From an uncultured Candidatus Saccharibacteria bacterium (GTDB lineage Bacteria > Patescibacteriota > Minisyncoccia > 2-02-FULL-40-12 > GWA2-44-9), in assembly GCA_964513645.1 (NCBI GenBank), contig CAZENF010000002.1:142072-206071 (forward strand): 64,000 nt of DNA, written 5' to 3'. Numbering within the stretch: the stretch's first letter is position 1; each line of letters begins with the position of its first letter. The notes under the pieces were generated by a model that worked only from the letters and a program-made list of their open reading frames with translations, was not told the DNA's origin and ran no database searches. The translations under genes and the position numbers were made by a program. This document shows, in pieces, positions 19,987 through 35,790 of this stretch.

Positions 19987-20015
19987 GTTGACCTGAAGCC
20001 AGAAAATTTTTATAC
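19987..20015 (+). promoter_or_regulatory. sigma70-like promoter TTGACC-17-TATACT upstream of rpmH
   Basis: Near-consensus -35/-10 with a 17-nt spacer, 14 nt before the rpmH region. Confidence 0.6.
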
Positions 20016-20028
20016 TGGTTATTACTAT

Positions 20029-20176: not shown

Positions 20177-20208
20177 TCTTTTACCGGTAAAACCAGTCCC
20201 GGAAGACA

Positions 20209-20535: not shown

Positions 20536-20538
20536 AAA

Positions 20539-20769
20539 ATGAACACAATGATCAGTTTGATAAAATTGTATCAGTATCTCACAAGAAATGTGTTTGGCTA
20601 TGTTGCACTGCCTTTAGCTGTGAAACCGGAATGCAAATTTTACCCCTCCTGTTCAGACTATGCCGTCGAATCATTAAATAAGCACGGATTCATAAAAGGA
20701 ACATACAAATCATTTGTAAGAATATTGAAATGTAATCCCTGGGCCAAACCAGGAGTAGATATGCCTTAA
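20539..20769 (+). CDS. yidD: membrane protein insertion efficiency factor YidD
   Basis: 76 aa with the conserved YQ...SPxxxxxCxFxPSCSxY motif. Confidence 0.8.
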   Translation: MNTMISLIKLYQYLTRNVFGYVALPLAVKPECKFYPSCSDYAVESLNKHGFIKGTYKSFVRILKCNPWAKPGVDMP

Positions 20770-20773
20770 AACA

Positions 20774-21481
20774 ATGCTCGAACTATTCAATACAATTTTG
20801 TACAGACCGTTATTCAACGCCGTAATATTTCTATACGATATTATTCCCGGCGGAGATTTCGGCCTGGCAATTGTGGCTTTAACCGTGATTATTCGCTTGG
20901 CCTTTTCCCCTCTTAGCATCAAGACCATACAATCCCAGAAAACGATGAATAAAATAAATCCTAAACTCAAAGCGATAAAAGAAAAATTCAAGAATGATAA
21001 TCAGGCCCAATCGGCTGCGATCATGGAACTCTACAAGGAGCACAAGGTTAACCCGTTCTTCGGCTGCCTACCCCTCTTGATACAACTGCCGATACTGATC
21101 GCTCTTTATAGAGCTTTTAGAGCTGGATTCCAGGAAGCCAACCTCTCTATGCTGTACAGTTTTGTAAAAAATCCGGGACATATTCATACAATCTCACTTG
21201 GTTTTATAGATATAACCTCGAGAAGTATTGCCCTGGCCATTATCACCGGGGTTTTCCAGTTTATCCAATTAAAACAAAATTCCTCCATCACAGGTTCAGC
21301 CGGGGGTGTTTCTGACCAAAAAGAGCTTCAGGCTTTGAATAGCCAAATGTTGTACTTTTTTCCGGTTATGATTATAATAATTGGTTGGAACCTACCGGCC
21401 GGACTCCTTTTTTATTGGGTAGCTGCTACTTTATTCTCCATGGGCGAGCAGCTCTATGTTAAGACAAGATATAAGGATTAA
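20774..21481 (+). CDS. yidC: membrane protein insertase YidC (short form)
   Basis: 235 aa, 5-TM YidC/Oxa1 core pattern. Position after yidD. Confidence 0.8.
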   Translation: MLELFNTILYRPLFNAVIFLYDIIPGGDFGLAIVALTVIIRLAFSPLSIKTIQSQKTMNKINPKLKAIKEKFKNDNQAQSAAIMELYKEHKVNPFFGCLPLLIQLPILIALYRAFRAGFQEANLSMLYSFVKNPGHIHTISLGFIDITSRSIALAIITGVFQFIQLKQNSSITGSAGGVSDQKELQALNSQMLYFFPVMIIIIGWNLPAGLLFYWVAATLFSMGEQLYVKTRYKD

Positions 21482-21482
21482 A

Positions 21483-21968
21483 ATGGAAAATAATGAACAA
21501 AAAAACTTAAAAGAACTTATTTCGGAAACTCTTCTAAAGATGGGTCAGTTTATGAACATCGAGTGTCAGGTTGAATTTAAGGAGGAACTTGATGACCGGA
21601 ACAGTAAATCTCTCCTGATCTCGATTTATACTCCGGACAGTGCCCGGTTTCTTATAGGTAAGAACGGCCAGAATCTCAAATCTCTTGAGCAGGTTTTAAG
21701 GGCGATGCACGCTAAGAATATGTCAGATTTTAATAATATCGTTGTTGACGTTAATGATTACCGTAGATCAAGAGCCATGTACGTTCTTGATATTGCACGT
21801 CAGGCAGTGACCCGGGTCAGAAGTACCCAGAAATCAGAGGCCCTAATGCCGATGTCCCCTTACGAAAGAAGAATAGTTCACATGGAATTAGCCTCCTGTC
21901 CCGACATTGCTACCGAGAGTATCGGCGCCGAACCTAACAGAAGGATAGTTGTAAAACCTTACCCTTAA
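21483..21968 (+). CDS. jag: Jag/KhpB-like KH + R3H RNA-binding protein
   Basis: Canonical position after yidC. R3H-type C-terminus (SPYERRIVHMEL). Start placed at ATG 21483 to avoid overlap with yidC. Confidence 0.7.
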   Translation: MENNEQKNLKELISETLLKMGQFMNIECQVEFKEELDDRNSKSLLISIYTPDSARFLIGKNGQNLKSLEQVLRAMHAKNMSDFNNIVVDVNDYRRSRAMYVLDIARQAVTRVRSTQKSEALMPMSPYERRIVHMELASCPDIATESIGAEPNRRIVVKPYP

Positions 21969-22016: not shown

Positions 22017-23129
22017 TTACTTGCCTAACCTCAAGGCGTAAAGCTTTTCGTCCGAATTATTAATAAATAAAATATAATCTTCTGTGTTCGAGAGGAATAG
22101 CGTTTTCACCGCGAAATCCAATTGATAGACTAATTTTTTTGAACCGTCGGAAGAGTTTATCTTGTATACATCATCAGCCGACGGCGAACTTGGGATTGCG
22201 CAGTAAAAATTAATATCATCGATGCTCCAGGCGCATTTTAAGGCGTCCGCCTGAATGTTCAATGGCTTTTCATCCCCGGAATCAGCAGACTTTAGATAAA
22301 GGTCAGGTAAGGATGAATTTGGGTCAACCTGGGTTGAAAAAAGTTCTTTGTTACCGCTCTTTGACCAGTTTTCCTGAACGTTAACCTTAGGATCCATGAA
22401 ATTCTTAAGCCAGACCTTGTCAGGGTCAAGGAGAAGAATTCCCTTATCCGGAGTCTCAAGCACTATCTGGTTCAGAGATGGCCATAAAATTTGCAGACCA
22501 CTTATCCGGGTACCGAGTACCTTCTTAGGTGTACTGCCGTCTGATTGAGCAACAAACACAGAACCTTCTGCCGAACCGCTCGATGTAGGATCGGTGGAAA
22601 AATAGGCCAAATAATTTCCATCCGGTGAAAAAGCCATTGATTGAACACCGGGACCGAGCAAAATGGTTTTTCCGGTATCCAGGTTTGAATATTTAAAATC
22701 AAAACCTTTTTCCGAATAGAATGCGTTTATAACCTCTTTTTTGTTGGGCGACCAGAGGGCTGATACAAAATTGGTCAGAATTTGGCTTGAGACAGAGGTT
22801 TCGGATTTATTAACCAGGTCGTACTCAAAGAGTTTGCCGGTGTTCTTTTCGTAATACAGAACACTGCCATTGTCGGGAGAAGTTGTCGGCGAGACCACTT
22901 TCCGGTCCGAAACCAAAAAAGGTGTTGTTTCGTCAGGCGTTGCATTAGGGGTCGGACTGTTTTTATCTGAAGAGGCCGAATCACTCCCAAACTTATCAAG
23001 GATGGTACCTGTTTTTGAGGAGGGAGAATTTATCAGACCTAAATCCCCTTTTAGGAACAAATAGCCGCCCAAAAAAGCCGTCAAAGACAGAGAAACAATA
23101 AGGAATGGTGAAAGTTTTTTGTTTTTCAT
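22017..23129 (-). CDS. secreted hypothetical protein, beta-propeller-like (last gene of T4SS-like operon)
   Basis: Signal/anchor helix then repetitive segments (DGNYLAYFS, DGSTPKKV, DGSKKLVYQ) suggestive of TolB-like beta-propeller blades. Inference only. Confidence 0.4.
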   Translation of the reverse strand: MKNKKLSPFLIVSLSLTAFLGGYLFLKGDLGLINSPSSKTGTILDKFGSDSASSDKNSPTPNATPDETTPFLVSDRKVVSPTTSPDNGSVLYYEKNTGKLFEYDLVNKSETSVSSQILTNFVSALWSPNKKEVINAFYSEKGFDFKYSNLDTGKTILLGPGVQSMAFSPDGNYLAYFSTDPTSSGSAEGSVFVAQSDGSTPKKVLGTRISGLQILWPSLNQIVLETPDKGILLLDPDKVWLKNFMDPKVNVQENWSKSGNKELFSTQVDPNSSLPDLYLKSADSGDEKPLNIQADALKCAWSIDDINFYCAIPSSPSADDVYKINSSDGSKKLVYQLDFAVKTLFLSNTEDYILFINNSDEKLYALRLGK

Positions 23130-23165
23130 AAAGGACAGGATAATTGATTATAGCACCTCGAAGAT

Positions 23166-23894
23166 TTATTGGGAAAATTGTTCTCGAGCCTCCTGGGCGG
23201 CCTTACTCGCCTGTTCATACAATTTTTTTTCAATAAAATAGGCCCAGAAGACGGATATGGTTGTCCAAGGCATAACATCAAGATAGGGTACAAAATCTAA
23301 ACCTGCCCCGGTACCCAAGGCTCCAAGAGGACTTTTATTGACTATATTGCTCAATTTTTTAGTGGTATTTAAAAGTTTTTCGGAAGTACCTTTAAGACCG
23401 GGAATTTTGCCGACCAACTTAGCTCCTTGCTGAACCCGCTGTTCTAAATAAACTATTCTCTGGGCGGCTGCGGTCATGTTATCGCTAAGATCAGTGATGA
23501 AAGACTTGGCTTCTTTTTGCTTGGCATCGGTGAACCAGTAGATAAGAAACATAGCTGCCGTAATGAATTTGGTGATAATCCAGGCAAAAACCGCACCAAC
23601 CCCGGTCATATCCAGAAGATCTATAATGTCTTTAATTATGCCTAAAGGTAAAAGAAGGACAAAATATTTGAATAAAGAAGGTCGTTTGTAGGACGAACCC
23701 TGATTCAAAAGTAACTCCTTTTCCTTATTCAGTTCTTGTTCGATTGCTAACTGATTAGCATATCCAGCTTCCTCATCTTCCTGTTGTTCTAACTCTTCTT
23801 GTATAGTCTCAATCTCTTCTTTTGAAATTTCTTCCTGTTGAACTGGTCTGTTTTGAACAGAGCTCTCTAAAAGTTGTTGTTCTTGGTCGGACAT
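23166..23894 (-). CDS. hypothetical membrane protein with acidic coiled N-terminus (T4SS-like operon)
   Basis: Acidic Glu-rich N-terminal segment, then 3-4 TM helices. Start set at the internal Met to abut the VirB4-like stop. Confidence 0.4.
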   Translation of the reverse strand: MSDQEQQLLESSVQNRPVQQEEISKEEIETIQEELEQQEDEEAGYANQLAIEQELNKEKELLLNQGSSYKRPSLFKYFVLLLPLGIIKDIIDLLDMTGVGAVFAWIITKFITAAMFLIYWFTDAKQKEAKSFITDLSDNMTAAAQRIVYLEQRVQQGAKLVGKIPGLKGTSEKLLNTTKKLSNIVNKSPLGALGTGAGLDFVPYLDVMPWTTISVFWAYFIEKKLYEQASKAAQEAREQFSQ

Positions 23895-23898
23895 AGTA

Positions 23899-25662
23899 TT
23901 AACTGTTCTCTTTTGCCCACTCTTCTTTAGCTTTTTCGACTTCAAGTATCTGTCTCGGGTCAGAGGTTATTATCTGGTCTTCAGCGTATGATGCGACAAC
24001 ACGGATGCCGACATGATTTTGTCCAATGAACAAAAGCCCGAAACCTACCCGGGCTTCGAGAAGATAATATTTTTCAGCATCAGTCAGGTTGAAAGTCTGC
24101 TTAACAACGTCTATTGCCGCCGGCGATTGTTTCATTAGGACCTGCATTGAGGAGTTGGTCACTATCGCCTTCCCTTGAGCCGTGGCCATAAAATCAGGAA
24201 TATCTTGAGAAATGGTCGTGAGGCCTAAATAATATTTCCTGGCCCGTTTGGCGATATTGAACAGGAACTCTGCGCCCAAGGGATATTTCATCAGCCACCA
24301 GGCCTCGTCTACGGCCAGAACTCTTTTTTTCAGATCTCTTCTGACCTGGGTCCAGATATGGTTCAAGATCAAATACATTGCGATAGGTCTTAGCTCCTCT
24401 TCCATGTCGCGGATACTGAAAACAACCAGACGATTCTCGAGAGAAACATTGGTTGGATTGTTCAAAAATCCGGCGAAAGTTCCCTGGGAGTATTTTTTAA
24501 GACGGACAGCCATTGATTCAGCGCCGGTCAAACCTTCCATAACATTTTGAAGGTCGGATAATATTGGTGGAGGGCGGTTGGTAAAATCCTGTTCCGCGGT
24601 TATATCTTTAATCGCATAGGTTTGGATAAGGGCTTCATCAAGTATGGAATCCTCTTCAGGCGTAAGTGTGCCGAGGATTAATTTTAAAAGACCGAGCAGA
24701 TCAAGAAGGTGAGACTTAAAGACATCGGCCGGAGATTCGTCTTGTTTCGGCGCCGGCAGATCAAAGGGGTTAAGGTGATGGGGGGAGTTTATCGATATTT
24801 TAACGGTTGAACCGCCGACGGTCTCGGCAAGATATTTATACTCATCTTCAGGATCGATCACCAGAACCTGAGTTCCGAATATCATGCTTCGGAGGATTTC
24901 AAGTTTGACGGTATAACTTTTTCCGCCGCCTGATTTTCCGAATACAACCGAATTTGCATTCTCAAGCTCAAAGCGGTCATAAAGCACGAGAGAATTGTTG
25001 TGAGTATTTATGCCGTACAGTATCCCAGAGTTTGAAGTGAGGTCAAAAGATACGAACGGGAATACGGAAGATAAGGGTTCGGTATTCATCGAGGTATAGA
25101 CATTGACCTTGTCCGTATTTAGAGGAAGAGTCGAAGTAAATCCTTCAGACATTCTGAAAGTGGCCGGCCGCGAAAATATCAGCTGATATTCGAGCATGCC
25201 TCGAAGCTTATTCTCCGTTTCATCAAGCTCTTTTAAACTCGATTCATAGAAGGTTAGATAGATGCCAATCTCGAAAAATCTGTCCGTCCCCTGCTGAAGA
25301 CGATCTCGCAGACTTTCAATGTCTTGAATTGCGGTCTCAAGTATTGGATTACGAACCTTACCGGCAGCAGATTCTTCCATCACTTCAGCTTCGAGACGGG
25401 CTAACTGGTCACGTAGCTGTTTAAGGATTTGGGCGGTATTCTTTGGGTTTACGAAGATAGAGATATCAAAAACCCGGTCGAGGTTTATTACCGGCGAGAA
25501 CCAGTTGGTATGGAGATAACGCGGGTAGGTGGCCAGAAAGATCGTCCGGGCGTATTGATTCCCGATCTGAATATGATTCGGCGCAACACTAAGAGCCGAC
25601 GGTGCTAAGAAGCTGTCGATATTTTTTGTATTGGTCTCGGTTGTTGGTTTAGGTTTGGCCAT
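23899..25662 (-). CDS. VirB4/TrbE/CagE-family type IV secretion ATPase (C-terminal ATPase module)
   Basis: Walker A SVVFGKSGGGKSY and Walker B RVLAVDEAWWLM (the DEAW hallmark of VirB4), then GLTTISQDIPDF. Start chosen at MAKPKP, 4 nt after the upstream stop. Confidence 0.7.
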   Translation of the reverse strand: MAKPKPTTETNTKNIDSFLAPSALSVAPNHIQIGNQYARTIFLATYPRYLHTNWFSPVINLDRVFDISIFVNPKNTAQILKQLRDQLARLEAEVMEESAAGKVRNPILETAIQDIESLRDRLQQGTDRFFEIGIYLTFYESSLKELDETENKLRGMLEYQLIFSRPATFRMSEGFTSTLPLNTDKVNVYTSMNTEPLSSVFPFVSFDLTSNSGILYGINTHNNSLVLYDRFELENANSVVFGKSGGGKSYTVKLEILRSMIFGTQVLVIDPEDEYKYLAETVGGSTVKISINSPHHLNPFDLPAPKQDESPADVFKSHLLDLLGLLKLILGTLTPEEDSILDEALIQTYAIKDITAEQDFTNRPPPILSDLQNVMEGLTGAESMAVRLKKYSQGTFAGFLNNPTNVSLENRLVVFSIRDMEEELRPIAMYLILNHIWTQVRRDLKKRVLAVDEAWWLMKYPLGAEFLFNIAKRARKYYLGLTTISQDIPDFMATAQGKAIVTNSSMQVLMKQSPAAIDVVKQTFNLTDAEKYYLLEARVGFGLLFIGQNHVGIRVVASYAEDQIITSDPRQILEVEKAKEEWAKENS

Positions 25663-25666
25663 AATT

Positions 25667-26311
25667 TTATATCTTCTTCTCTTCGCCGGTGGTTTTAGCG
25701 ACAGGATTGTAAAGATTATAGAACATCTGGACGAGCTCATCTCTTTCAAGCACCCTGGTCTTCAATCCAATTCCGACCAAGCCGCCAAAAATCAGTTCCG
25801 CTCTTTGCATAAGCTGATTTCTGTAGATTTGGAATTTATCGTCGGAGATAGATTGTGTCTGGCCTCCCTGGCCTGCGATGCTTTTTATACTTTGGAATAT
25901 TCCGGTTTTGGTCGGAGCTTCAAAAATATAGAACGGAACAACGATATAGAATTTTTTAGACATTATATTGGTAAGAGATGAGAGCTCTTTTATAAATTTC
26001 ATATATTCATTTGCTTGAATGCGGAGAAGTTCATTATCAAGTCCGGCAGAAGCTTCGGAAGCCAGTTTAAGATAGTCATCTATGTAAAGTCTTCTCGAGA
26101 CGATAGAAATATGAAGCGGGAAATCTATAGAGTTTAAAAATTTCTGGAAATTCTGAATTATGGCTATTTGTTCATCTTCCGAGCGGAGCTCAAAATTGAT
26201 GGCCGAAACCTCAACTATTACCCGCATCGAGCCGTCTTTAAGAAGCAAGACGCTGTCTCTTATCTCGGATATCGAAACCAGATTTTGGGTCGAAGGACCG
26301 GCGGTCGCCAT
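25667..26311 (-). CDS. VirB4 N-terminal-domain-like protein (possible split VirB4)
   Basis: 214-aa ORF immediately upstream of the ATPase ORF. Length and pattern resemble the VirB4/TrbE N-terminal domain. Assignment is by context. Confidence 0.4.
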   Translation of the reverse strand: MATAGPSTQNLVSISEIRDSVLLLKDGSMRVIVEVSAINFELRSEDEQIAIIQNFQKFLNSIDFPLHISIVSRRLYIDDYLKLASEASAGLDNELLRIQANEYMKFIKELSSLTNIMSKKFYIVVPFYIFEAPTKTGIFQSIKSIAGQGGQTQSISDDKFQIYRNQLMQRAELIFGGLVGIGLKTRVLERDELVQMFYNLYNPVAKTTGEEKKI

Positions 26312-26322
26312 ATTAATTATGT

Positions 26323-26667
26323 TTACTTATTTTTCCTGTCTGAAATTATAATCTCTTTTTCAACACCTATTTCCTGCATATCGGACTTTTCTTCTTTTTT
26401 AAAAACATATTGCTTTGGATTAAAAAGATAACCAAGCCAGTAAAGAATGTAATTTATCAAAGGGACGTCGCTTATCCTGACAAAGGCCAGAGCGGCGGAT
26501 AATCCCGCGACAGGTATGGCCAGGAAAAAAAATATAAGACGGTTCATGGTCAGAAACATGAAAAATACCACTGCCCCGCCGCTTGCAAGCCAGAGAAATT
26601 GTTTAAGGGTTAAAGGCCCAATAAGTTTTGTTTCTGTCTCTATGAATTGTGGAACTTGAAATTTCAA
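26323..26667 (-). CDS. VirB3-like small two-TM membrane protein
   Basis: 114 aa with two adjacent TM helices, placed directly upstream of the VirB4-like genes as VirB3/TrbD usually is. Confidence 0.35.
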   Translation of the reverse strand: MKFQVPQFIETETKLIGPLTLKQFLWLASGGAVVFFMFLTMNRLIFFFLAIPVAGLSAALAFVRISDVPLINYILYWLGYLFNPKQYVFKKEEKSDMQEIGVEKEIIISDRKNK

Positions 26668-26670
26668 TGT

Positions 26671-27924
26671 TTATGCGTCGGGTTTATTTCTCAAGTCAAT
26701 TATACTGGCGACCTTTTGAAGCTCATTCTCAAGTGATTTCTGGGCTTCACTCGGAAGTTGTTCTTTTGCCCCTGGTTGAGTCGGTTGTATAGGAAGAGGG
26801 TTTGGTTTAATCGGGGCGGCGCCAAAAGTCTTAGTACTGCTGCCGGCCTCAAAAGGGCCAAGGTCTGGGATTTTAAATTCCGGTTTTGGCGGAAGCTTGG
26901 GTGGAATTGGAGGCGCTTGGGTCACTGGAGGAGAGGCGGTCGGTTTAGGCGCTCTTATTTCTTCCATTGTCGGAACAGGAGCAGGTTTTATTTCAGGTTT
27001 TGGCGCTTGAGCAACTGGAACCATTGGAGCGGCGGGTGCAGTTGCCGGTTTTTGGAATTGAGGCGGAGGTATGCTGGGCTTTGGCGGAGATGCTACAGGA
27101 GGAGTGGTGGCTGGAACTGGGTTTGGGGCATTCTGCCTTGGAGGAAGCGGCGACGATTGAGGAGGTTTTGGGGTAAATGAAGGCGCGGGCACCGATACTT
27201 TGGCTTGAGGAACTGTCGCGCTTTGACCGGAAGGTGTTTGAGGCAAAACAGGTTTGGCGGGCGATATATTTGGAGAAGATTGAGGGGCACTCTTCGGTAT
27301 GGTTTGCTGTGCCTGAACCGGGGGTGACGGTGGTAGCGTAGAAGGTCTTAAAGCCGGAGACGGTGAAACAGGAGGTGCCGGAGGTCGGAGTGCCGGAGAG
27401 GGTTGTGAGACGGTCGGTGCCATGCCGACAGGAGGTAGCGGCGAAGGAACAGTTAAGGGTTTAGGTATGTCAGGTTTCTGGACGGTCGAGGATTCTTTTT
27501 GTATCTGCGCGATCTTTTCCGGGAATTTATTTCTCTGGATCCTTTTCAACTCTTCAATTATCGGGGTGAATGATTGCGAAACAATATAATTAACGACTTC
27601 AGCTGCCTTGTTTTCATCAATGTTTGATTGAGAAGCAAGGGTGCTTGGAAAATCTTTTATGAAAATATTGCCGAGGACTACATCGCGGACTAATTGGGCG
27701 GCCTTTGATATCTGAGGTTCTTGAAGCTCATATTTTAAACCGGCCAAGGTTATCGCGGTTGCCGTATCTTCTGAGGAAATAAAATTTTTAACCGATTCAG
27801 GCAAACGGCCGTAAATCTCAAAGAAGGCTTTGGATTCAGGAGTGTCAGAGTTTTTAAAACCAGCAAAATAAGGACTGGAAATAAAATACTGATATGAAGT
27901 TATGGGATTAGTGACCGGTTCCAT
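26671..27924 (-). CDS. proline-rich low-complexity protein (about 150-aa N-terminal domain plus about 250-aa Pro/Ser/Ala-rich tail)
   Basis: Long PxxP/PPxP tract (VPSPLPPVGMAPTVSQPSPALRPPAPPV...). No catalytic motif. Confidence 0.45.
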   Translation of the reverse strand: MEPVTNPITSYQYFISSPYFAGFKNSDTPESKAFFEIYGRLPESVKNFISSEDTATAITLAGLKYELQEPQISKAAQLVRDVVLGNIFIKDFPSTLASQSNIDENKAAEVVNYIVSQSFTPIIEELKRIQRNKFPEKIAQIQKESSTVQKPDIPKPLTVPSPLPPVGMAPTVSQPSPALRPPAPPVSPSPALRPSTLPPSPPVQAQQTIPKSAPQSSPNISPAKPVLPQTPSGQSATVPQAKVSVPAPSFTPKPPQSSPLPPRQNAPNPVPATTPPVASPPKPSIPPPQFQKPATAPAAPMVPVAQAPKPEIKPAPVPTMEEIRAPKPTASPPVTQAPPIPPKLPPKPEFKIPDLGPFEAGSSTKTFGAAPIKPNPLPIQPTQPGAKEQLPSEAQKSLENELQKVASIIDLRNKPDA

Positions 27925-27926
27925 GT

Positions 27927-30407
27927 TTATTTTAGAGAAGTTAGAAGTGTTTTAATTTGTTCAAATTCATTCTTAGCCGCATCAACCTGATACTTTGTTG
28001 CGGAATCATTAATAGCAAGTTCGTCAACTATCTTTCTGGCCATGTTCAATATACGCTGAGCTTCGGTAGATAATTGGGCAGCCTTCTGGCTATCATTAGC
28101 AGCTTTAGCCGATCTAATACCCGTGGTCAGGTTTTTTATATTATCCAGATACTTATCAAGGGGTTTTATCTTTTCATCGATAAAGGCGTCATTTCGCACT
28201 TTAAAGAATAAGGTGTTTAAGGCCTCCACTTTTTCCGCGGAAGCTTTAGGATGAGATATTATTGAACTAATTCTGCCGGGCGTAAGGTTTGCCTCAAGGG
28301 CAGTCTGAAAATCTGAATTAGAAATAGTGTCTTTCGATAGTTCAAGAATGTCCTCGGTACTTAGCTTTCCGGCCGCCTTTTTCAGGGCCTGGTCGTAAGT
28401 ATCGTTACCAAGAAGCTGCAAGGATTCTTTGGCTTTAAGAGCGGCGATAATGTTTTTCTTCTGAACTCTCGACAGGAAATTATCTTTCTGGTTAGCTGCC
28501 TGGAACAGATTTGCCGCGTCCTTAAGTTGGTCTGTAGTCATATCGCCGAAGTCCCCTTTTTCCGCCATGACCATAGCCATTTCCTTCTTCATATCTGGCG
28601 TCACCTTGCTATTGTTGAAAATAGATCTTCTTTGGTCAGCCTTGAGTCTCTCCAGATAGTCTTTGGCCTTCTTTACATAGTCTGCTTTGTCTGCTTCAGA
28701 CGTAAATATGGTGGACTGTTCTACAAAAACGTCCTCGGCGCTTTTAACTATATTGCCTTGAGCGTCTTTAATATCAGCAAATTCGCTGTTCTCCGCTCTA
28801 ACATCCGCTATTTTTTGTTTTAATCGAAGGTTGTTTACCTGGTTGTAAAGCATATCCCGGTCTGGCTTGCTTAGATGTTTAAGGTCAACTTTTTCAATCG
28901 CTCTTCTGGCGTTCATAGAACTAGCTCCACCGTATAGGTCGTAGAGTGATAAGACTTGGCCTCCGTTCAGTCCTTGCCGTTCTTCAAGAATTTCGAGAGC
29001 GGCTATCTTCTCATTCTTTGTACCGTTCTGGCTGAGATTCTGAAGTTCGGTTAGGTCTGTTATCTTTTGGACTCTTTGGCGGGCACTTGTTACTGCTTGA
29101 GCCAGGGTCTTATCTGCGGTTTCTTGGGCCCCGAACCTCTGGGCAACTCCTGATTGTAGTCTTTGGGCCCCCTCCTCACCTCCATATATGTAACCTAATC
29201 TTCCTGGTAAACCTTTCTTTTGAATTTCGCCAAGCTTCTCTCCCATAGCGCCGGTTACACCGGTTCTTCTGCCGATGTACTGGCCGAAGCCGATTGGTGC
29301 AGATGCACCCCACCTCGCTACAGCCGCACTTCTGGCCCAAATTCCGCCCGCAACCGCTCCGGCACTCGCGGTTATGGACATTGACCTCGCTATTTTAGCT
29401 CCGCCGATGAAAACTATCCCTACCAGAATGAAGAAAAATAATTGTTGAGCGGTGATGCCCAAGGTATCAATAAGGGGCCGGGTCGGATCTGTTCCGAAAT
29501 TTGCAGCGACCCTTTGTTGTTGTGCCAGCATGTAAGAACCGAAGTATATAATGAAAAGATATAACGGCATAAAAATATTCCAGCCGATGAACTCACGCCA
29601 CCAGTTATGCCACACCTTCCGGGTCGTAGGCAGAATAAAACCTATCCAGGCGATGGGAGAAGCGATAAGAAGCGCCCAAAGTATCGGTATCCGGACAATG
29701 GAGAAAAAGAAAAGCACCATCATACTGAAAAATATTATGGATAGTAATATCATTTTGGCGAAAGCGGCCATGGTGCTATCCCAACCGGTCTGGGTTATGG
29801 CCGGACTATTCTTCAAACTGTTCGTAAATGTATCGGCAAGAGCCGTGCCTTGAGCGACTCTGTTACCGATATCGCCGATAGAGGTCAGAAACACATTACT
29901 TAAAGACTGGGACCAGTCGATGATAATATTACCGATAACTAAACTGAAATTTATTAACAACACAACAATGAGAAATTTAACTATTAAAGAACTGAAATTA
30001 TATCCGCCGACATTAAATATCGTCCCGAAGGCCATTATTATCAGAGCAATAATGAAGAACATATTTGCAAAATCTCTGACTGTCGCCCACAAATCCCTTA
30101 CGACCGGAGCATTGGCTATCCCATAGCTTAGTACAGCAGTTGTGCCGGTTGACAAAAGACCGGTCCCATTGGCCAGGACGCCGTTCAAAAAGTTAATGAA
30201 CTGCTCTATGATACCTGTCCCGCAGCCCACGTCTGTTACCAGACAAAATGCGGCCGTAGCAACGGCACCTGGTACGCTTGCTCTTGCTTGGTATAAAGGT
30301 ACGGACGTGCTTAAAATCAAAACCATCAGGACTATCAGACCCATTTTGAGGCTAACTCTGTTTTTATCTTCTAAAATTTTAAACATTCTTTTTAAGATCA
30401 AGGACAA
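27927..30407 (-). CDS. VirB6/TrbL-like polytopic membrane protein with about 400-aa C-terminal coiled-coil extension
   Basis: About 8 predicted TM helices in the first 400 aa, then a long charged alpha-helical region. Size and topology match VirB6/TrbL-family channel proteins. Confidence 0.45.
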   Translation of the reverse strand: MSLILKRMFKILEDKNRVSLKMGLIVLMVLILSTSVPLYQARASVPGAVATAAFCLVTDVGCGTGIIEQFINFLNGVLANGTGLLSTGTTAVLSYGIANAPVVRDLWATVRDFANMFFIIALIIMAFGTIFNVGGYNFSSLIVKFLIVVLLINFSLVIGNIIIDWSQSLSNVFLTSIGDIGNRVAQGTALADTFTNSLKNSPAITQTGWDSTMAAFAKMILLSIIFFSMMVLFFFSIVRIPILWALLIASPIAWIGFILPTTRKVWHNWWREFIGWNIFMPLYLFIIYFGSYMLAQQQRVAANFGTDPTRPLIDTLGITAQQLFFFILVGIVFIGGAKIARSMSITASAGAVAGGIWARSAAVARWGASAPIGFGQYIGRRTGVTGAMGEKLGEIQKKGLPGRLGYIYGGEEGAQRLQSGVAQRFGAQETADKTLAQAVTSARQRVQKITDLTELQNLSQNGTKNEKIAALEILEERQGLNGGQVLSLYDLYGGASSMNARRAIEKVDLKHLSKPDRDMLYNQVNNLRLKQKIADVRAENSEFADIKDAQGNIVKSAEDVFVEQSTIFTSEADKADYVKKAKDYLERLKADQRRSIFNNSKVTPDMKKEMAMVMAEKGDFGDMTTDQLKDAANLFQAANQKDNFLSRVQKKNIIAALKAKESLQLLGNDTYDQALKKAAGKLSTEDILELSKDTISNSDFQTALEANLTPGRISSIISHPKASAEKVEALNTLFFKVRNDAFIDEKIKPLDKYLDNIKNLTTGIRSAKAANDSQKAAQLSTEAQRILNMARKIVDELAINDSATKYQVDAAKNEFEQIKTLLTSLK

Positions 30408-32164
30408 ATATAGCCTTGAATGCCGTCTGATGCTGCGTTTGGAGCGTTTTCACAAGTTGAAGACAGGGTCGAGTAATGATCTATCCCTGCAGCGTTTGAA
30501 CTCGGGACATAGCATCGATAGATCGGGGTATTAGCATTTAACATCGGGCTTGAAACAAGATATCCTATCACACCCTCATCACCATACGTTCCGCATGGAT
30601 TAGGGCCACTGGCCAGCATATGGTCTCCGTTTAAGAAACATGAATGAAGTTCTTGTGTATATCCGGGGACCGTAGCTGAAAGGACGATAAACGAAGGCCC
30701 ATCATATGAATAACCCAGCGGAGGAGGGTTTAATATCGGGTCTGGATGCTGGTAATGGTCTGGGCCGTTATAGTATCTTTGTATCGTCTCATTACAGGTA
30801 AAACTTGATGGCGGTGTGGGGATGGGAGTTGGAACTGGTGTTGGTGTCGGCGTCTGTCCTACTGGTGTTGGTGTCGGAGTTCCTCCGGGCGGAACTGTTG
30901 GCATTACTGTTGAGCAAGGTGTTGAAGCGGTCGATACTCCAACTGAAACAGGATAAGGTTTCGGGTTACCTGGGTCTTCAGGAGGATAAGGCAGACCGCC
31001 GGGCCCGGTCGGGGTTGTCGGACAAGGTATCTCCGGATTCGGTACATCAGGAGGATAAGGTTCAGGTTTATAGGGTTCCTGTTGGCGTTCGTCAGGTGCG
31101 GCAAGGTTAAGAACGCGGCTCATCAGTGTCGAAGTAAGGTCGGAAATTATACCCTGAAGAGAGTTGACGTTAGTTAACCAGGCAAGTTCTTCTTGAACAA
31201 CCGAAACTGCAGTTCCTTGAAGTGCGCTGCCGGGAGTTAAGATATTTTTAAAAACAATGCAGGAGCCGTTCGAGGCCCGTAAAAGACAACTGTCTTCAGG
31301 ACCATAACCGGTTCTCGAAGTAAAACCAAGGCCTGATACTGCTTGGTTCACGTCGCTACCTGACTCTAAAGCTCTTTGAGCCTGAAGTTCAGCCATCGAT
31401 AAAAGCATAGAGCCGTAATAGTTATTTTGAGGTTCGGCAAGGCGGGATAAAGTATTCCAGCCCCCGTTACCGGCAAAATTATTACGATAATTGCCCATTG
31501 AAAAATTGGCACCCATCGTACATCCGGCTCTTAAATTGAACGGATCAAGGTTACCTGTTCTTGTCAGGGGTCCACCATAGAAATTAAGGTTGGGCTGGTT
31601 ATTAGCATTAAAAACATTTTTCAGATCTCCGGAAAAAAAGGAACAAAGATTGGTTCCGCCAAGGATTGAACGGAAAAGGTTCTCACCTCGGTGTTCGGCG
31701 TCTATCTGAAAATTTCGCCAACTTCTGACAAAGGCTGGTCCTCCGTTCCGGCCGCTGGTTCTGACCGCACCTATCATTCTACCCGTCATCCCGTTCATTA
31801 TTTGTCTGGCAAAGCAGCGGCCGACCACATCGCCATAATTTTTAGCGCCTTCCAGGACCGCATTCATAGTCGGTACGTTTTGGGTGAACAGGTTAAAAAT
31901 ACCGAGCCAGTTAAAAACGTTACTAAGGGTACTACTTAAATTAGAAAGGATCTGTACGCCGGTATAAAGTTTGTTAATCACCCATTGGGCCAAAATTCCG
32001 CCGACCGAACAAGACACTCCTCCGATAAGAACGTCGGTAAAACTGACCTGCGCCTGGGGCGGAGGGGCTGATTGGGCATAGGCGTCCGGAATGAAGCTTA
32101 AGCTCGGCAGGATTACAGCCAGAATGGTTATAGATACTGTAAATATTTTAAAACTTCTGAACAT
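30398..32164 (-). CDS. secreted protein with Pro/Thr linker and Cys-containing C-terminal domain
   Basis: Signal peptide, Gly/Asn-rich central region, PTPTPVGQTPTPTPVPTPIPTPP linker, C-terminal domain with several Cys. Confidence 0.45.
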   Translation of the reverse strand: MFRSFKIFTVSITILAVILPSLSFIPDAYAQSAPPPQAQVSFTDVLIGGVSCSVGGILAQWVINKLYTGVQILSNLSSTLSNVFNWLGIFNLFTQNVPTMNAVLEGAKNYGDVVGRCFARQIMNGMTGRMIGAVRTSGRNGGPAFVRSWRNFQIDAEHRGENLFRSILGGTNLCSFFSGDLKNVFNANNQPNLNFYGGPLTRTGNLDPFNLRAGCTMGANFSMGNYRNNFAGNGGWNTLSRLAEPQNNYYGSMLLSMAELQAQRALESGSDVNQAVSGLGFTSRTGYGPEDSCLLRASNGSCIVFKNILTPGSALQGTAVSVVQEELAWLTNVNSLQGIISDLTSTLMSRVLNLAAPDERQQEPYKPEPYPPDVPNPEIPCPTTPTGPGGLPYPPEDPGNPKPYPVSVGVSTASTPCSTVMPTVPPGGTPTPTPVGQTPTPTPVPTPIPTPPSSFTCNETIQRYYNGPDHYQHPDPILNPPPLGYSYDGPSFIVLSATVPGYTQELHSCFLNGDHMLASGPNPCGTYGDEGVIGYLVSSPMLNANTPIYRCYVPSSNAAGIDHYSTLSSTCENAPNAASDGIQGYICP

Positions 32165-33070
32165 TTATTTTGGAAAATTAAAAACAAGACCTTCTGTCTG
32201 GACTTTATCGGCATAAGCTTTTATCGCTTGAGGGATGTTATCAGAAACTTTAGACAAAAAGCTGAAGGCAATGGCGGCTTTTATGGTGTCATCATTCGCT
32301 TCCGAAAGGGCTTTGTTTATTATTATCATTTCGGAGATTAATTGATAAAAACTGACATGAGCGTCTTTCCATTCGGTAGGCACCTTTGCTTGAGCCAAAG
32401 AATCGGCTATTTTTTGGAACTCATCTCTTTTTGATTTGAAGTAAGAAATGTATTCTTCATTTACGAACCCTCCGTTATTTGTGGCTTCTATCTTGTTACC
32501 CATATTTTTTATCTCATCAACGAACAAGTCCATGAATGATTTCCAGGTCTTAGTTGAGTAATCCACATATTGTTGTTGGCTTTCTTTTGAAGAATCTACG
32601 ATCGTGATTTGGGGAGGATTTGAAGGTGCCAAGTCTTTTATCCCGTCGCTTAACAGTGAGTCGGTTAGGTCGCTTAAGGATGAACCATAGTTTTTACTGT
32701 CCGGCTGGAGAGAGCCCTCGGCTAATCCTCCGATGAGCAGATTCGCCGCTTTACTAGTCAGGTTGTTGTTCAAAAGAAGGTCGTTGGGACCCGGTATCAT
32801 CGGGTCATGGCCCGAGGCAACCTCTTCTCCATCAAGATATCCGTCACCGTCGCTGTCAGGATTGGTATAATCAGTACCCCAATATGATTCTTGTGAATCG
32901 GTCAGACCATCATGATCAGTATCTTGGTTCGGGTCAACCGGGGCGATAGACGAGACAGGGTTGCTGATATTGGCAAGTTGAATACCTCTGAAAGATTCAA
33001 AAAAAGAAAAAACAAAAACAACGGCTAAAACAGCCAAGAGGCCGATGGATATTTTTATTTTTGTTGTCAT
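32165..33070 (-). CDS. N-terminally anchored protein with thrombospondin-type-3-like Ca-binding Asp repeats
   Basis: TM anchor then DTDHDGLTDSQE / NPDSDGDGYLDGEE repeats (DxDxDG). Confidence 0.45.
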   Translation of the reverse strand: MTTKIKISIGLLAVLAVVFVFSFFESFRGIQLANISNPVSSIAPVDPNQDTDHDGLTDSQESYWGTDYTNPDSDGDGYLDGEEVASGHDPMIPGPNDLLLNNNLTSKAANLLIGGLAEGSLQPDSKNYGSSLSDLTDSLLSDGIKDLAPSNPPQITIVDSSKESQQQYVDYSTKTWKSFMDLFVDEIKNMGNKIEATNNGGFVNEEYISYFKSKRDEFQKIADSLAQAKVPTEWKDAHVSFYQLISEMIIINKALSEANDDTIKAAIAFSFLSKVSDNIPQAIKAYADKVQTEGLVFNFPK

Positions 33071-33175
33071 AACAAACCAGCCGTAACAAAATTATCGGTT
33101 GGCTGGACACATTAATTATAGTATATAAAAATCCAGTAAAATACTGGTTAACTGTGCATATCTACAGTGAATGAT

Positions 33176-34984
33176 TTAAGGCCAGGGGAAGGAGGGATAT
33201 TTCGATTTAAGTTCGGTAAGCACGCTTTGGGGAACGCTGTTAGGACTCGTCCCGATCAGGCGTATAACTTTGTAAATATCGATTCCGAACTGGTCTTTTT
33301 TGCCGGAGACCTTACAGTCGAATCTGAAATCGTCAAAACATACTCCCGAGTAGGGTGCACCGTAAGTTATTACGCCGACTGCGCATGGAAGTAAGTCCCC
33401 TGTCTGGGTAGGAGGTATGTGGATGATTATTTTACCGAGCTCGTCATTGATGGCCGGCAATGGAAAAGGTGTAAAGCCAAGACCAAGAGCCCAAGGACCC
33501 TGTTGGTTTTCCTTATTATTGCGGTATTTTTGAGTTATAAATGGAAACTCTATTACTTTGCCATTGCTTGGTGTTGGCGGGCCGACCTCAATTGCGCTTC
33601 CGATAAGAGGAATGGTCACTGGACCCCCCAGCGGTACTGAATAGCAAACCCCGAAGAAGCAGAAGGTCGGTTGTTCCCAGAATGCATGAAATTTAAAATC
33701 ACAGGCCCGTTCGCTTGATAATATCGGACCGCCGAACGGAAACTGATGAGGGATATAATCTAATACTTGCGTTGTGCGTCTTATGGTCGTGATTATGTCA
33801 AAAACCTTTTTGACAATACAGATAATTCGTCCCCACCAGGCCAGTGAACAAGACGGAAAAACTGTACCTGTCCCGCCGGTTGGAAGTTCGCCCCAGTTCG
33901 GAGTTATATCGGTACTGGGCAGGTTTTGGGCAAAAGAAGTTTTAACCGAAAGCATGGAAACTAAATTCTTAAATATATTGTTAAGGAATTTGAAAATGCT
34001 GTCTAACCAACTATCTGATGGAATTTTTTGTTGTTCGGTGGTGCCGGTTGAGTTTTGAAAAGTTTGGACCGGTGACGGAGAAATATTTAAGATTTGTTCA
34101 ATTTGTTCCCGAGAAGGAATGTTTGAGGGTGATAACTTAGTTGTTTCTCGGACCGGCGTCGGAGTTATAATGCCGGGAGTTTTTTTGGATTGAGTGGAGG
34201 AAACCGGAGAAATTGGAGGAGAAGGAATAATGCAATAACCGTCTTTGGCGTATGACCCGGAACCATGTATGGATTGGCAGATTTGGTCGGCCTGGACACA
34301 TTGACCCTGATTCAGAAAATAACCCTGGGCGCACACACAGAGGTCAAGGTCAAATTCATAAGAGGAATACTTACCGTAGTATATCGGGCAGAAAACAGCT
34401 TTTAACAACGGTATGGATAGTTTTCCGGTGGGTGTAAAATCCGGTCGGCCTTGTGCTACTAAACATTGATGGTATTCAGCGTCAGCCGCCGCATAGTCCG
34501 TCATTTGCTGGCGGCATTGATCCGTCTCCAGTTTTCCAAGCTCTGAATTAGAAACACTCCCAAGATATTTCAGGAGATTAGTATAGGATTGTGCGGTAGT
34601 GCAGCCAAGCTCACTCGGAGGATAGCAGGCGCTTTTTAAAATAAAATCAGAATCTTGGTCGGCTTTTTGAAGTATTTGATCCTGGCATTCAGGAATGCCG
34701 TAGATAAAAGGAAAATTCTTGTCTAAGGTACCGTCTTTACAGACCACTGACCCCTCCTGATTAATGACGGAGCAATCCACTCCTCCATGACCGGAACATA
34801 TCTTTGCAAAAAACTCTTTGTTATATTCAGCTCTGGCTGCGGCGTCAGGTGTGGCAAAAGGAAGAGGAGAAGGGCTCGGAGCACCGGCCCCGGCGGTTAT
34901 AGCGCTTGCAAAATTATTCAATACGAAAAGAGTGGAGCAAAACAAGATAAATACCCCCGCTGTTATTTTTAGTTTTCGAGCCAT
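33176..34984 (-). CDS. secreted cysteine-rich protein (first gene of T4SS-like operon)
   Basis: Signal peptide. More than 25 Cys in 602 aa. No recognised domain. Confidence 0.45.
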   Translation of the reverse strand: MARKLKITAGVFILFCSTLFVLNNFASAITAGAGAPSPSPLPFATPDAAARAEYNKEFFAKICSGHGGVDCSVINQEGSVVCKDGTLDKNFPFIYGIPECQDQILQKADQDSDFILKSACYPPSELGCTTAQSYTNLLKYLGSVSNSELGKLETDQCRQQMTDYAAADAEYHQCLVAQGRPDFTPTGKLSIPLLKAVFCPIYYGKYSSYEFDLDLCVCAQGYFLNQGQCVQADQICQSIHGSGSYAKDGYCIIPSPPISPVSSTQSKKTPGIITPTPVRETTKLSPSNIPSREQIEQILNISPSPVQTFQNSTGTTEQQKIPSDSWLDSIFKFLNNIFKNLVSMLSVKTSFAQNLPSTDITPNWGELPTGGTGTVFPSCSLAWWGRIICIVKKVFDIITTIRRTTQVLDYIPHQFPFGGPILSSERACDFKFHAFWEQPTFCFFGVCYSVPLGGPVTIPLIGSAIEVGPPTPSNGKVIEFPFITQKYRNNKENQQGPWALGLGFTPFPLPAINDELGKIIIHIPPTQTGDLLPCAVGVITYGAPYSGVCFDDFRFDCKVSGKKDQFGIDIYKVIRLIGTSPNSVPQSVLTELKSKYPSFPWP

Positions 34985-35010: not shown

Positions 35011-35790
35011 TTACCTGAAGAGCAGGTCTGACAGTCTCTGCCAATCTTCAATTGAGAGATTTTCCGGCCGGGCTTGGATTTCAATGCCGGCTTTTTGAAG
35101 AGAGCTCGCTATCCCTTCTTTGGATTGACCAAGTTTTTTGGCAAGCGTGCCGGCAAGCTGTTTTCTTTTTTCTGAAAATCCCATTTTCATAAGATTGAAT
35201 AATTTAGTATTTCGGATAGCCGGTTTAGGGGTTAATTTTATAATTGCAGAATCCACTTTTGGCACCGGCCGGAAATTATTTTTTGATACAAATCCGATTA
35301 TTTCGGGCTCGGTATAATATTGGACAGACAAAGCCAGCAAGTTCATGTGAGGCGGCTTGGCAACTATCCTTTGGGCGACTTCTTTTTGGATCATTAATAG
35401 TATCAATTTTGTTTGAGGCCACTCTTCAAGTATTTTCCGGATAAGGTTTGAAGTAATATAGTAGGGTATGTTGGCGACTATTTTGTATCTCTTTTCCTGT
35501 AGGCCGTAATGGACCGGTTTTATTTTAAGGACGTCGTCTTCGGATATCTCTACGTTCGGAGAATTTTTAAAATTTTCTTTAAGCATACTCACCAGGTGCC
35601 GGTCTTTTTCGACCGCGATTATCTGGCTTGCCTTTTCAGCAAGTTCTTTGGTTAGATTTCCGGTGCCGGGGCCGATCTCGAGAATGATATCGTCTTTTTT
35701 AATATCGGCCGCAGAAATTATTTTATCCAGGATATGAGGATTGATAAGAAAATTCTGACCGAGGGATTTTTTGGCTGTAACTTTCATCAA
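35011..35790 (-). CDS. ksgA: 16S rRNA (adenine1518/1519-N6)-dimethyltransferase
   Basis: LGQNFL...EIGPGTGNLT motifs of KsgA/RsmA. Confidence 0.85.
   Translation of the reverse strand: MMKVTAKKSLGQNFLINPHILDKIISAADIKKDDIILEIGPGTGNLTKELAEKASQIIAVEKDRHLVSMLKENFKNSPNVEISEDDVLKIKPVHYGLQEKRYKIVANIPYYITSNLIRKILEEWPQTKLILLMIQKEVAQRIVAKPPHMNLLALSVQYYTEPEIIGFVSKNNFRPVPKVDSAIIKLTPKPAIRNTKLFNLMKMGFSEKRKQLAGTLAKKLGQSKEGIASSLQKAGIEIQARPENLSIEDWQRLSDLLFR

Follow-up and report, generated by a model that had tools for sequence, protein, structure and literature searches.

The minus strand of the 64-kb DNA stretch analysed here (positions 1-64000, hereafter the window) carries, at 22017-34984, ten open reading frames (ORFs) that we interpret as a chromosomal, vertically inherited and non-conjugative type IV secretion system (T4SS) of the Patescibacteria type. 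It would derive from the monoderm machinery of mating-pair-formation class FATA (MPF-FATA), belong to a Yanofskybacteria-like (Parcubacteria/Paceibacteria) genome and most likely serve macromolecule exchange with a host cell; we assign this reading a probability of about 0.85. The analysis shows an energising and membrane core whose components are VirB4, an ATPase in two pieces (g04 and g03), g05 of the PrgI/VirB3 type, and g07, an extended channel protein resembling VirB6; the genes are labelled g10 to g01 in transcription order. The system is already known, having been described in 2025 as nearly universal in Patescibacteria (PMC12102498), and its novelty was overestimated in an initial annotation of this DNA, as it was published between 2023 and 2025.

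T4SS are among the few machines that nearly all candidate phyla radiation (CPR)/Patescibacteria members have kept despite extreme genome reduction, and in the sole tractable species the system is essential for epibiotic growth. This was found by transposon sequencing in Southlakia epibionticum, whose T4SS cluster (SEML1_0006-0019) has neither a coupling protein nor a relaxase (Wang et al. 2023; PMC10633639). Quinonero-Coronel et al. (2025, Microb Genom; PMC12102498) detected VirB4 in 2417 of 3035 Patescibacteria genomes as a monophyletic clade nested in MPF-FATA. In their catalogue virB4 is accompanied by PrgI/VirB3, VirB6 and homologues of TrsD, which have remote homology to the VirB4 N-terminus (1664 of them beside virB4); VirB2-like pilins are frequent near virB4, though not universal (1135 assemblies), and in Paceibacteria dnaA, dnaN, rnpA, ksgA and rpmH lie near it. 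Such systems are treated as established newcomers to the superfamily in a 2025 review (PMC12857230). Yanofskybacteria-related bacteria parasitise methanogenic archaea, with secretion genes highly expressed; the same work reports T4SS pilins in other Paceibacteria, and none in the metagenome-assembled genome of Yanofskyibacterium (PMC10936435). The window adds no new kind of system to this picture; it provides a clean, complete Parcubacteria example.

Layout of the locus

All ten minus-strand ORFs of the initial annotation are present at 22017-34984 (Table 1). The start of g03 was set to the ATG at 25662 (587 amino acids, aa), the ORF as listed reaching the TTG at 25749 (616 aa); g02 comprises 259 aa if read from an upstream TTG, and the likely start of g07 is the ATG at 30344, which gives 805 aa and the same start as the database form. 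With the likeliest starts the intergenic gaps measure 105 nucleotides (nt) between g10 and g09, 0 nt between g09 and g08, 2 nt between g07 and g06, 3 nt between g06 and g05, 11 nt between g05 and g04, 4 nt on either side of g03 and 36 nt between g02 and g01; g08 and g07 overlap by 10 nt if g07 starts at TTG and are 53 nt apart if it starts at the ATG at 30344. The tight packing first ascribed to all ten genes is thus seen from g09 to g01 (0-36 nt), and not between g10 and g09. The same-strand run also continues upstream of g10 into ksgA (35011-35790, 26-nt gap) and uvrD/pcrA (35787-37805), and the transcription unit may hold 12 genes rather than 10.

A consensus scan yielded 36 promoter-like sites against 28.2 ± 5.5 in shuffled sequence (about 1.4 standard deviations) and 28 terminator-like sites against 19.3 ± 4.3 (about 2 standard deviations), with no convincing site of either kind. 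Because these counts are near the shuffled background, we infer a single operon from gene spacing only.

Table 1. Genes of the T4SS locus in transcription order, and examples of the pilin gene found in sister lineages (coordinates within the respective locus)
Gene	Coordinates	Strand	Product	Remark
g10	33176..34984	-	602-aa secreted protein, 23 Cys	first after ksgA; lineage-specific accessory gene
g09	32165..33070	-	301 aa; membrane anchor or signal at the N-terminus, TSP3 repeats of bacterial type (Asp-rich, Ca-binding), ~200-aa helical C-terminal domain	
g08	30398..32164	-	588-aa secreted protein; ~350-aa conserved N-terminal domain, Pro/Thr linker, variable C-terminal domain	
g07	27927..30407	-	826 aa as listed; extended VirB6-like polytopic membrane protein	
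g06	26671..27924	-	417 aa; ~130-aa conserved N-terminal helical domain and 20.9%-Pro tail; no signal peptide or transmembrane segment	
g05	26323..26667	-	114-aa PrgI-family (VirB3-like) protein, two transmembrane helices	
g04	25667..26311	-	214-aa stand-alone VirB4 N-terminal-domain protein (TrsD-like)	
g03	23899..25662	-	587-aa VirB4 ATPase (middle and C-terminal ATPase domains)	
g02	23166..23894	-	~242-aa membrane protein; charged N-terminal ~85 aa, 2-3 transmembrane helices	
g01	22017..23129	-	370 aa; TolB-like beta-propeller, extracytoplasmic and anchored in the membrane	last gene of the operon
Pilin gene, L054	14132-14560			
Pilin gene, L077	13150-13809			
Pilin gene, L070	13296-13802			

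The VirB4 ATPase is encoded in two pieces

On NCBIfam model NF045971, which describes VirB4-like conjugal transfer ATPases of the CD1110 family, g03 reaches 357.1 bits, above the curated cutoff of 325, and it contains the Walker A motif GKSGGGKS and the Walker B motif DEAW, which confirms the VirB4 identity proposed initially for the 616-aa ORF. More weakly, it matches the TraC, VirB4_CagE and TraG-type VirB4 models of NCBIfam, and in Pfam it matches P-loop_TraG, AAA_10, DUF87 and, weakly, CagE_TrbE_VirB. This is further supported by the solved structures in the PDB, where the only relatives at E ≤ 1e-3 are VirB4 proteins, namely that of Thermoanaerobacter (4ag5, 8.6e-40) and TrwK of R388 (7e-7). 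The protein does not group with FtsK or HerA: there is no FtsK match in Pfam, and the HerA-type DUF87 reaches only 37.5 bits. A PHROG assignment of both VirB4 halves to phrog_2666, 'terminase large subunit' (E 3.7e-26 and 2.9e-9), was rejected because NCBIfam and the PDB give VirB4; phrog_2666 is probably mislabelled and contains VirB4-like proteins.

The CD1110 profile is entered by g03 only at position ~183 of 752, i.e. the N-terminal domain is not part of the same polypeptide. The complementary region maps to g04, which matches the N-terminal parts of VirB4 profiles (VirB4_plasma, the mycoplasma-type model, 103-233 of 894, E 7.7e-9; CD1110, 6-118 of 752). The two genes meet in the junction TAA-aatt-ATG, which is preceded by a purine-rich stretch. 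When g04 and g03 are concatenated in silico every VirB4 score rises, to 377.8 bits on NF045971, and a single match to the generic TIGR00929 VirB4_CagE model spans 18-724 of 792; scores on that model are 108-118 bits, below its cutoff of 643.

We compared the locus with relatives obtained from a VirB4 scan using one genome per species, which gave 212 loci, of which the best 80 were taken (the related loci below). Counterparts of g04 and g03 are separate ORFs in 77 of 78 related loci, and their stop codons and reading frames differ; sequencing error is therefore excluded as the cause of the split, and the view that VirB4 is divided from a 214-aa N-terminal-domain ORF stands. An exhaustive HMMER search with g04 recovered 1947 relatives among 50%-identity cluster representatives. 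The best 150 of these comprise 148 stand-alone proteins (83-443 aa) and two long ones. Natural fusions exist and are rare, since one protein of 797 aa (P0296) aligns with g04 at residues 5-211 and with g03 at residues 229-796 (52% identity); an 898-aa protein (P0237) is a second rare fused form. Separately, one related locus (L026:5127-7292) contains an apparent in-frame fusion that is missing ~115 residues at the junction and may be a real deletion-fusion or an assembly artefact.

Against the NCBIfam TrsD/TraD family (NF041427) g04 reaches 24.1 bits (E 2.6e-5) over 45 residues only, the cutoff being 200 bits. By role, position and remote similarity to the VirB4 N-terminus g04 thus appears TrsD-like, and it is not a member of NCBI's TrsD family.

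PrgI/VirB3 and an extended VirB6-like protein

With 39.7 bits on Pfam PrgI (PF12666; cutoff 27), covering profile positions 2-91 of 91, and two transmembrane (TM) helices, g05 bears out its description as a VirB3-like protein. A counterpart is found in essentially all related loci, immediately upstream of the gene for the VirB4 N-terminal domain.

The predicted architecture of g07 begins with a cleavable-looking signal peptide and a VirB6-like bundle of ~5-6 membrane helices; a basic, disordered linker then leads to an alpha-helical repeat domain of ~415 aa. The predicted structure has a polytopic inner-membrane fold (at least five TM helices) like that of the solved VirB6 protein TrwI of R388, g07 is encoded together with virB3 and virB4, and the membrane domain is 23% identical to a 779-aa protein at the equivalent position in Pontibacillus. 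One family member (P0103) reaches 16.9 bits on TrbL/VirB6 (PF04610; cutoff 25.9), covering nearly the entire profile. Thus, the modelled fold and the position of g07 are VirB6-like, and membership of the Pfam TrbL family is not borne out by sequence. The initial annotation had also seen a VirB6/TrbL-like protein, for which it counted about eight TM helices followed by a coiled coil of some 400 aa; the predicted structure supports the general assignment, gives fewer helices and turns the coiled coil into a helical repeat. In a structure comparison this C-terminal domain, which is predicted with confidence and varies among orthologues, resembles ARM/HEAT repeat proteins (importin-alpha, probability 0.99). 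It could be the missing substrate-docking element of a system that has no coupling protein.

Applied to the loops (a strongly basic segment past the last TM helix and the basic TTRKVWHNWWRE loop) and combined with one long helix at 183-227, the positive-inside rule suggests that g07 crosses the membrane five times, its N-terminus lying outside and its repeat domain on the cytoplasmic side. A PDB profile search with the VirB6-like family returned coiled-coil or low-complexity noise only, and precomputed 'PF19590' tags on some VirB6-like homologues were discarded, as they were not reproduced in the current Pfam copy. In one Yanofskybacteria VirB6-like homologue (P0077; 819 aa, 7 contigs) the place of the helical-repeat tail is occupied by a C-terminal DpnI_C domain (PF17726, 'Dam-replacing' winged-helix DNA-binding domain, 95.7 bits).

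A vertically inherited core locus next to housekeeping genes

The best 80 of the 212 loci all belong to CPR. VirB4 identity is 64-90% within Yanofskybacteria, with top values of 88-90% in Yanofskybacteria metagenome-assembled genomes, which point to a Yanofskybacteria-like source organism, and 54-60% in Giovannoni-, Azam-, Sungii-, Portnoybacteria and others. Throughout the related loci, the gene order seen by tblastn and in ORF maps is uvrD-ksgA-...-g09-g08-g07-g06-g05-g04-g03-g02-...-g01-(jag-yidC on the opposite strand), and across loci of conserved order VirB4 identity decays smoothly from 90% to 54%. The nine genes g09-g01 form a block conserved across Parcubacteria, five of which are without annotation; the block hence delivers five candidate components missed by current T4SS profiles. 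In the window the left flank, directly beside the operon, consists of dnaN, dnaA, rpmH, rnpA, a yidD-like ORF, yidC and jag/khpB (17059-21968), and the right flank of ksgA, uvrD/pcrA and a clpB-like gene. Outside CPR, the best VirB4 matches are on monoderm plasmids (30-38% identity).

Genes and borders of a conjugative element were searched for by several routes. No Pfam domain of a type IV coupling protein (T4CP), relaxase or VirB11 was present among the scanned window ORFs of at least 150 aa, and tblastn with two T4CPs and two relaxase types gave no match in the 64-kb window or in the 80 related loci (up to ~21.8 kb). Tblastn with VirB8, VirB1 and VirB11 matched a single window gene, at 9289-10947 on the plus strand; as a candidate VirB11 it was rejected, being a PilB-type ATPase (T2SSE/MshEN) for type IV pilus assembly 11 kb from the operon. 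The 80 related loci gave no VirB11 by tblastn either. A repeat search of the window returned chance-level short matches only, with no att-like, oriT-like or bounding direct repeats, and the composition shows no anomaly at the operon. Given the Parcubacteria-wide synteny, and with no relaxase, coupling protein or element border found in the window, this is a vertically inherited core locus and not an integrative and conjugative element (ICE). The initial annotation had reached the same view after seeing no relaxase, VirD4, VirB11, pilin or oriT-like repeat; with the pilin profile described below, all five remain undetected in the window, and neither a relaxase nor a VirD4 gene adjoins the operon.

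The cumulative GC skew has its minimum at ~16-18 kb. No DnaA-box cluster lies beside dnaA, and three boxes cluster at 2048-2134. We infer a replication origin near dnaA/dnaN solely from the genes present and the GC skew; if it lies there, the run from the T4SS through ksgA to uvrD is transcribed head-on to replication.

Accessory and secreted partners

The propeller gene g01 encodes an N-terminal TM segment, and nearly all related loci have an orthologue of it as the final gene of the cluster. With the family profile, TolB structures are found (E 2e-16 to 1e-13 over ~130 residues), whereas single-sequence matches are weak (TIGR02800 TolB, E 3.9e-7, 29 bits against a cutoff of 343; PD40 likewise weak). 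These matches point to a propeller of TolB type, not to a TolB orthologue. A beta-propeller-like secreted protein had been proposed to follow the signal-peptide proteins; the matches support the fold, and the gene sits instead at the 3' end of the operon, after VirB4, with a membrane anchor at its N-terminus. Directly after VirB4, the related loci encode counterparts of g02 with 133-260 aa, an acidic N-terminus and 2-3 TM helices; g02 itself matched no family.

The Pro-rich g06 had tentatively been viewed as a periplasm-spanning, TonB- or VirB10-like protein. This view finds no support: by composition and hydropathy g06 has neither a signal peptide nor a TM segment and hence no anchor, and Pfam and NCBIfam give no VirB10 or TonB match; the conserved part is N-terminal, and only a Pro-rich stretch is common to g06 and VirB10/TonB. 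In 51 related loci a positional orthologue with a shared LPxx(L/V)...S..T motif occupies the place between the genes for the VirB6-like protein and PrgI. No relative of g06 was found in Pfam (including searches with 52 positional orthologues), by PDB profile search or, with the N-terminal domain as query, in the word index.

The calcium-binding Asp repeats attributed to g09 are confirmed by a score of 30.0 bits on Pfam TSP3_bac (PF18884; cutoff 25). In addition, the g09 family profile matches the TSP3 region of the biofilm-associated surface protein 7c7u (E 1.2e-6), and the D/G/E/P residues of the repeat are invariant across 25 orthologues. Most related loci have the orthologue at the equivalent position. 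Likewise, g08 is kept between g09 and g07 in most loci, and it has the signal peptide and the TPTPTP linker noted initially, as well as 14 Cys. An alignment of 30 homologues has 29 invariant columns and an N-terminal domain with invariant Cys, Arg and Trp residues. It matched no family, a PDB profile search produced coiled-coil or low-complexity noise and no solved relative, and the AlphaFold2 model built from the 30 homologues is unusable (predicted local distance difference test score 46.5).

The first gene, g10, has the N-terminal hydrophobic signal and Cys-rich composition of the secreted protein described before, with 23 Cys and not more than 25. It matched no Pfam, NCBIfam or PHROG family. 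Because tblastn finds relatives in only ~4 of the 80 related loci, and these cover only the C-terminal ~190 aa, g10 lies outside the conserved core. None of the ORFs flanking the VirB4 genes has a confident non-T4SS annotation.

Presence of an operon-linked pilin gene differs between lineages

In 28 loci of sister lineages (all within L050-L080; non-Yanofsky Parcubacteria) a gene for a VirB2-like T4SS pilin is located just upstream of the propeller gene (examples in Table 1). The Pfam pilin model PF18895 detects it with 41 bits in L054 and below threshold in others, and a local hidden Markov model (HMM) recovers all 28. The pilin gene usually follows an extra gene for a single-TM protein of ~330-475 aa. 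Neither is found in the Yanofskybacteria clade: the pilin HMM has no match (E<1) in the window and none in the 49 loci of the Yanofsky clade (L001-L049), and the extra single-TM protein gene is likewise absent from these loci and from the window. The Yanofskybacteria clade is thus without the operon-linked VirB2-like pilin gene of its sister lineages, an observation that goes beyond the published catalogue, as do the nine-gene block with its unannotated members and the variable helical-repeat tail of the VirB6-like protein.

Further features of the window

An M23 peptidase (52324-53163, plus strand) and a LysM-LysM-CHAP peptidoglycan hydrolase (61490-62449, minus strand), at a distance of 17-27 kb, are possible functional stand-ins for the VirB1 missing from the operon. 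The plus strand further encodes a pair of ClpB/ClpC-like AAA+ paralogues within 10 kb (38276-40786 and 46625-48973), the first having no recognisable Clp_N or first canonical AAA module by Pfam. A ComM-like ATPase of the Mg-chelatase/YifB family, a competence-associated DNA-processing helicase family, is encoded at 59923-61464 (plus strand) and PNPase at 55442-57538. The window also contains 19 tRNA genes, a high density for a small genome, several of them in tight clusters (11-181, 1303-1986, 4787-4945, 43144-43488, 45215-46208 and 50690-51043).

Proposed mechanism and alternative explanations

In the proposed machine VirB4, with g03 and g04 acting in trans, would dock via PrgI/VirB3 onto the VirB6-like channel. 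The membrane translocon would be formed by g02, g05 and g07, and its cytoplasmic face by the VirB6 repeat tail, the Pro-rich g06 and a VirB4 hexamer. Exported by Sec, g01, g09, g08 and g10 may build the wall-spanning, host-contact part that replaces the outer-membrane core complex of diderms. Such a machine does not conjugate; its most likely role is to pass macromolecules between episymbiont and host cell, in agreement with the initial suggestion of a host-interaction or uptake apparatus of a CPR episymbiont and with the literature (PMC12102498, PMC10633639, PMC12857230). Of the two directions of transport we lean slightly, at a little under even odds, towards uptake of host nucleic acid or other macromolecules, in view of the lack of a T4CP shared with Ced and ComB, the nucleotide auxotrophy of the organism and the DpnI_C domain of one relative; the export of effector proteins is the alternative, to which we give a somewhat smaller chance.

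Several points weigh against reading the locus as a Patescibacteria-type T4SS for host exchange. The searches cover 64 kb of a larger genome, and a T4CP, a relaxase or pilins could sit elsewhere; in most genomes VirD4-like genes are in fact far from virB4 (PMC12102498). Neither a VirB1-like hydrolase nor a VirB8-like protein was recognised in the operon. The VirB6 call relies on the predicted structure because hhalign of the g07 family with TrwI is not significant (probability 0.9%), and g07 matches nothing in NCBIfam or in Pfam, PF04610 included (E≤1). Identity rankings, which are not a phylogenetic test, are consistent with placing this VirB4 in the Patescibacteria clade, and it is conserved synteny that places g01, g02, g06, g08, g09 and g10 as putative members of the machine. 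Finally, essentiality has been shown only in a Saccharimonadia species with a different cluster (pilin array, peptidoglycan hydrolases), the T4SS of Parcubacteria being known from genes alone.

The best-surviving alternative is a dedicated DNA or RNA import machine like archaeal Ced or Helicobacter pylori ComB, in which VirB4 would power inward transport through the VirB6-like channel and so feed a nucleotide-auxotrophic symbiont. We hold it tentatively, as possible at odds distinctly short of even. Import was proposed by the authors of PMC12102498, and a 2026 preprint connects tubes resembling T4SS with symbionts that feed on host RNA. The locus has no T4CP or relaxase, as is the case for ComB and Ced; it offers a minimal membrane core of a polytopic protein, small TM proteins and a VirB4-like ATPase in a single-membrane cell, CedB and CedD are matched weakly in NCBIfam (E 1e-7 to 1e-8), and the VirB6-like homologue P0077 has the DpnI_C DNA-binding domain. 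The CedB similarity, however, is that of a generic P-loop (31-34 bits against a cutoff of 700), the operon encodes no DNA-binding or nuclease component, and in S. epibionticum DNA uptake needs ComEC, which is dispensable for growth, whereas the T4SS is essential (PMC12857230).

Export of effector proteins or of a surface structure into or onto the host, as by Brucella VirB or the 89K system of Streptococcus suis, appears rather unlikely. Effector translocators that work without a T4CP exist (PMC12857230), and Wang et al. (PMC10633639) suggest that the S. epibionticum system 'may instead export proteins'. The leaderless g06, conserved in the operon and with an extended Pro-rich tail, could be such a substrate; it could equally be a cytoplasmic scaffold, while the other extracytoplasmic proteins carry Sec signals and need no T4SS for their export. 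No recognisable effector, chaperone or secretion signal is present.

An improbable variant is that only VirB3, VirB4 and VirB6 form a machine and that the secreted, Cys-rich, TSP3 and propeller genes are unrelated surface genes which happen to share its strand. Indeed none of them matches a T4SS family, g10 occurs in few relatives, and the 105-nt gap between g10 and g09 includes a weak terminator-like hairpin that could separate two units. On the other hand, from g09 to g01 the gaps measure 0-36 nt, and the placement of g09, g08, g06, g02 and g01 with respect to VirB6, VirB3 and VirB4 is preserved even where the VirB4s are only 54-60% identical and the flanks vary.

Taking the lineage difference further, the Yanofskybacteria-clade locus may be a distinct sub-type without pilin and coupling protein, in which Parcubacteria-specific partners replace the pilus and form a contact-dependent conduit that takes up host nucleic acid, possibly from methanogen hosts. 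These partners would be the anchored TolB-like propeller, the TSP3 protein, the Cys-rich exoprotein, the leaderless Pro-rich protein and the cytoplasmic alpha-solenoid tail of VirB6 (a DpnI-type domain in one relative). We regard this as speculative, with a low chance of being correct.

That the region is the conjugative module of an ICE or a degraded plasmid, with relaxase and coupling protein outside it or lost, is highly improbable. In its favour, the nearest non-CPR VirB4s are on plasmids, many typed conjugative, a VirB4 of 38% identity is clustered in Embleya with both a T4CP and a replication-relaxation protein, and a tyrosine recombinase is encoded at 53541-54452. Against it, the operon and its housekeeping flanks (jag/yidC/rnpA/dnaA on one side, ksgA/uvrD on the other) are syntenic across several candidate phyla with smooth identity decay, neither the window nor the 80 loci yielded a T4CP or a relaxase, bounding direct repeats and a composition anomaly are absent, the recombinase is XerC/D-like and 19 kb from the operon, and only 103 of 3035 Patescibacteria genomes contain relaxases (PMC12102498).

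Comparison with known systems

The closest known system is the T4SS of the Patescibacteria clade. The locus shares with it a VirB4 whose nearest relatives are all CPR, the adjacent TrsD-like, PrgI/VirB3 and VirB6 genes, the absence of a relaxase or T4CP nearby, the proximity to dnaA, dnaN, rnpA, rpmH and ksgA, and a monoderm-type composition without VirB7/9/10. Five partners of the window locus are unannotated in the published catalogue (PMC12102498), namely the TolB-like propeller, the TSP3 protein, the Cys-rich exoprotein, the Pro-rich protein and the 3-TM protein. In contrast to S. epibionticum, which has six essential pilins, the window locus has no pilin gene, and it has no adjacent peptidoglycan hydrolase.

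The MPF-FATA systems of Gram-positive plasmids are represented by pGO1/pSK41 (TrsC-TrsD-TrsE), pIP501 (TraD-TraE) and pCF10 (PrgH-PrgI-PrgJ). The order VirB6-like ... VirB3-like / (TrsD-like) / VirB4 and the lack of an outer-membrane core are the same, and in the pGO1 subclass a separate small protein is likewise homologous to the VirB4 N-terminus. In contrast, no relaxase, T4CP (TrsK/PcfC), VirB1-like hydrolase (TrsG/PrgK), VirB8-like protein (PrgL/TraM) or adhesin (PrgB) was recognised in the window locus, which is chromosomal, vertically inherited and not mobile, with a VirB4 identity of ~30-38%.

Extended VirB6 proteins of the Rickettsiales RvhB6 and F-plasmid TraG type (PMC12857230) have the same arrangement as g07, a VirB6-like domain followed by a large hydrophilic C-proximal domain; sequence similarity was not detected between them, and the extension of g07 is a predicted ~415-aa ARM/HEAT-like alpha-helical repeat. 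With archaeal Ced and H. pylori ComB the locus has in common a VirB4-type ATPase with few membrane proteins and no T4CP or relaxase, whereas the ATPase similarity is generic (CedB 31-34 bits, cutoff 700) and homologues of CedA or ComB were not found.

A related block outside CPR is present on a megaplasmid of Pontibacillus sp. ALD_SL1 (NZ_CP062975.1 347340-367067; L082), where a 779-aa VirB6-like protein (23%) and a 116-aa small TM protein are encoded with a 274-aa TrsD-like protein (29% identity to g04, E 1e-26), directly followed by a 621-aa CD1110-family VirB4 (34%). This megaplasmid is typed non-mobilizable. It differs in belonging to a Firmicute, in encoding an Mbov_0395-type pilin-like protein and a 1050-aa peptidoglycan endopeptidase, and in lacking the propeller, TSP3 and Cys-rich partners. 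The Pontibacillus cluster adjoins flagellar genes; it may show that MPF-FATA-type systems which do not conjugate occur outside CPR as well. Because this megaplasmid has it too, the stand-alone TrsD-like gene before VirB4 is not confined to CPR.

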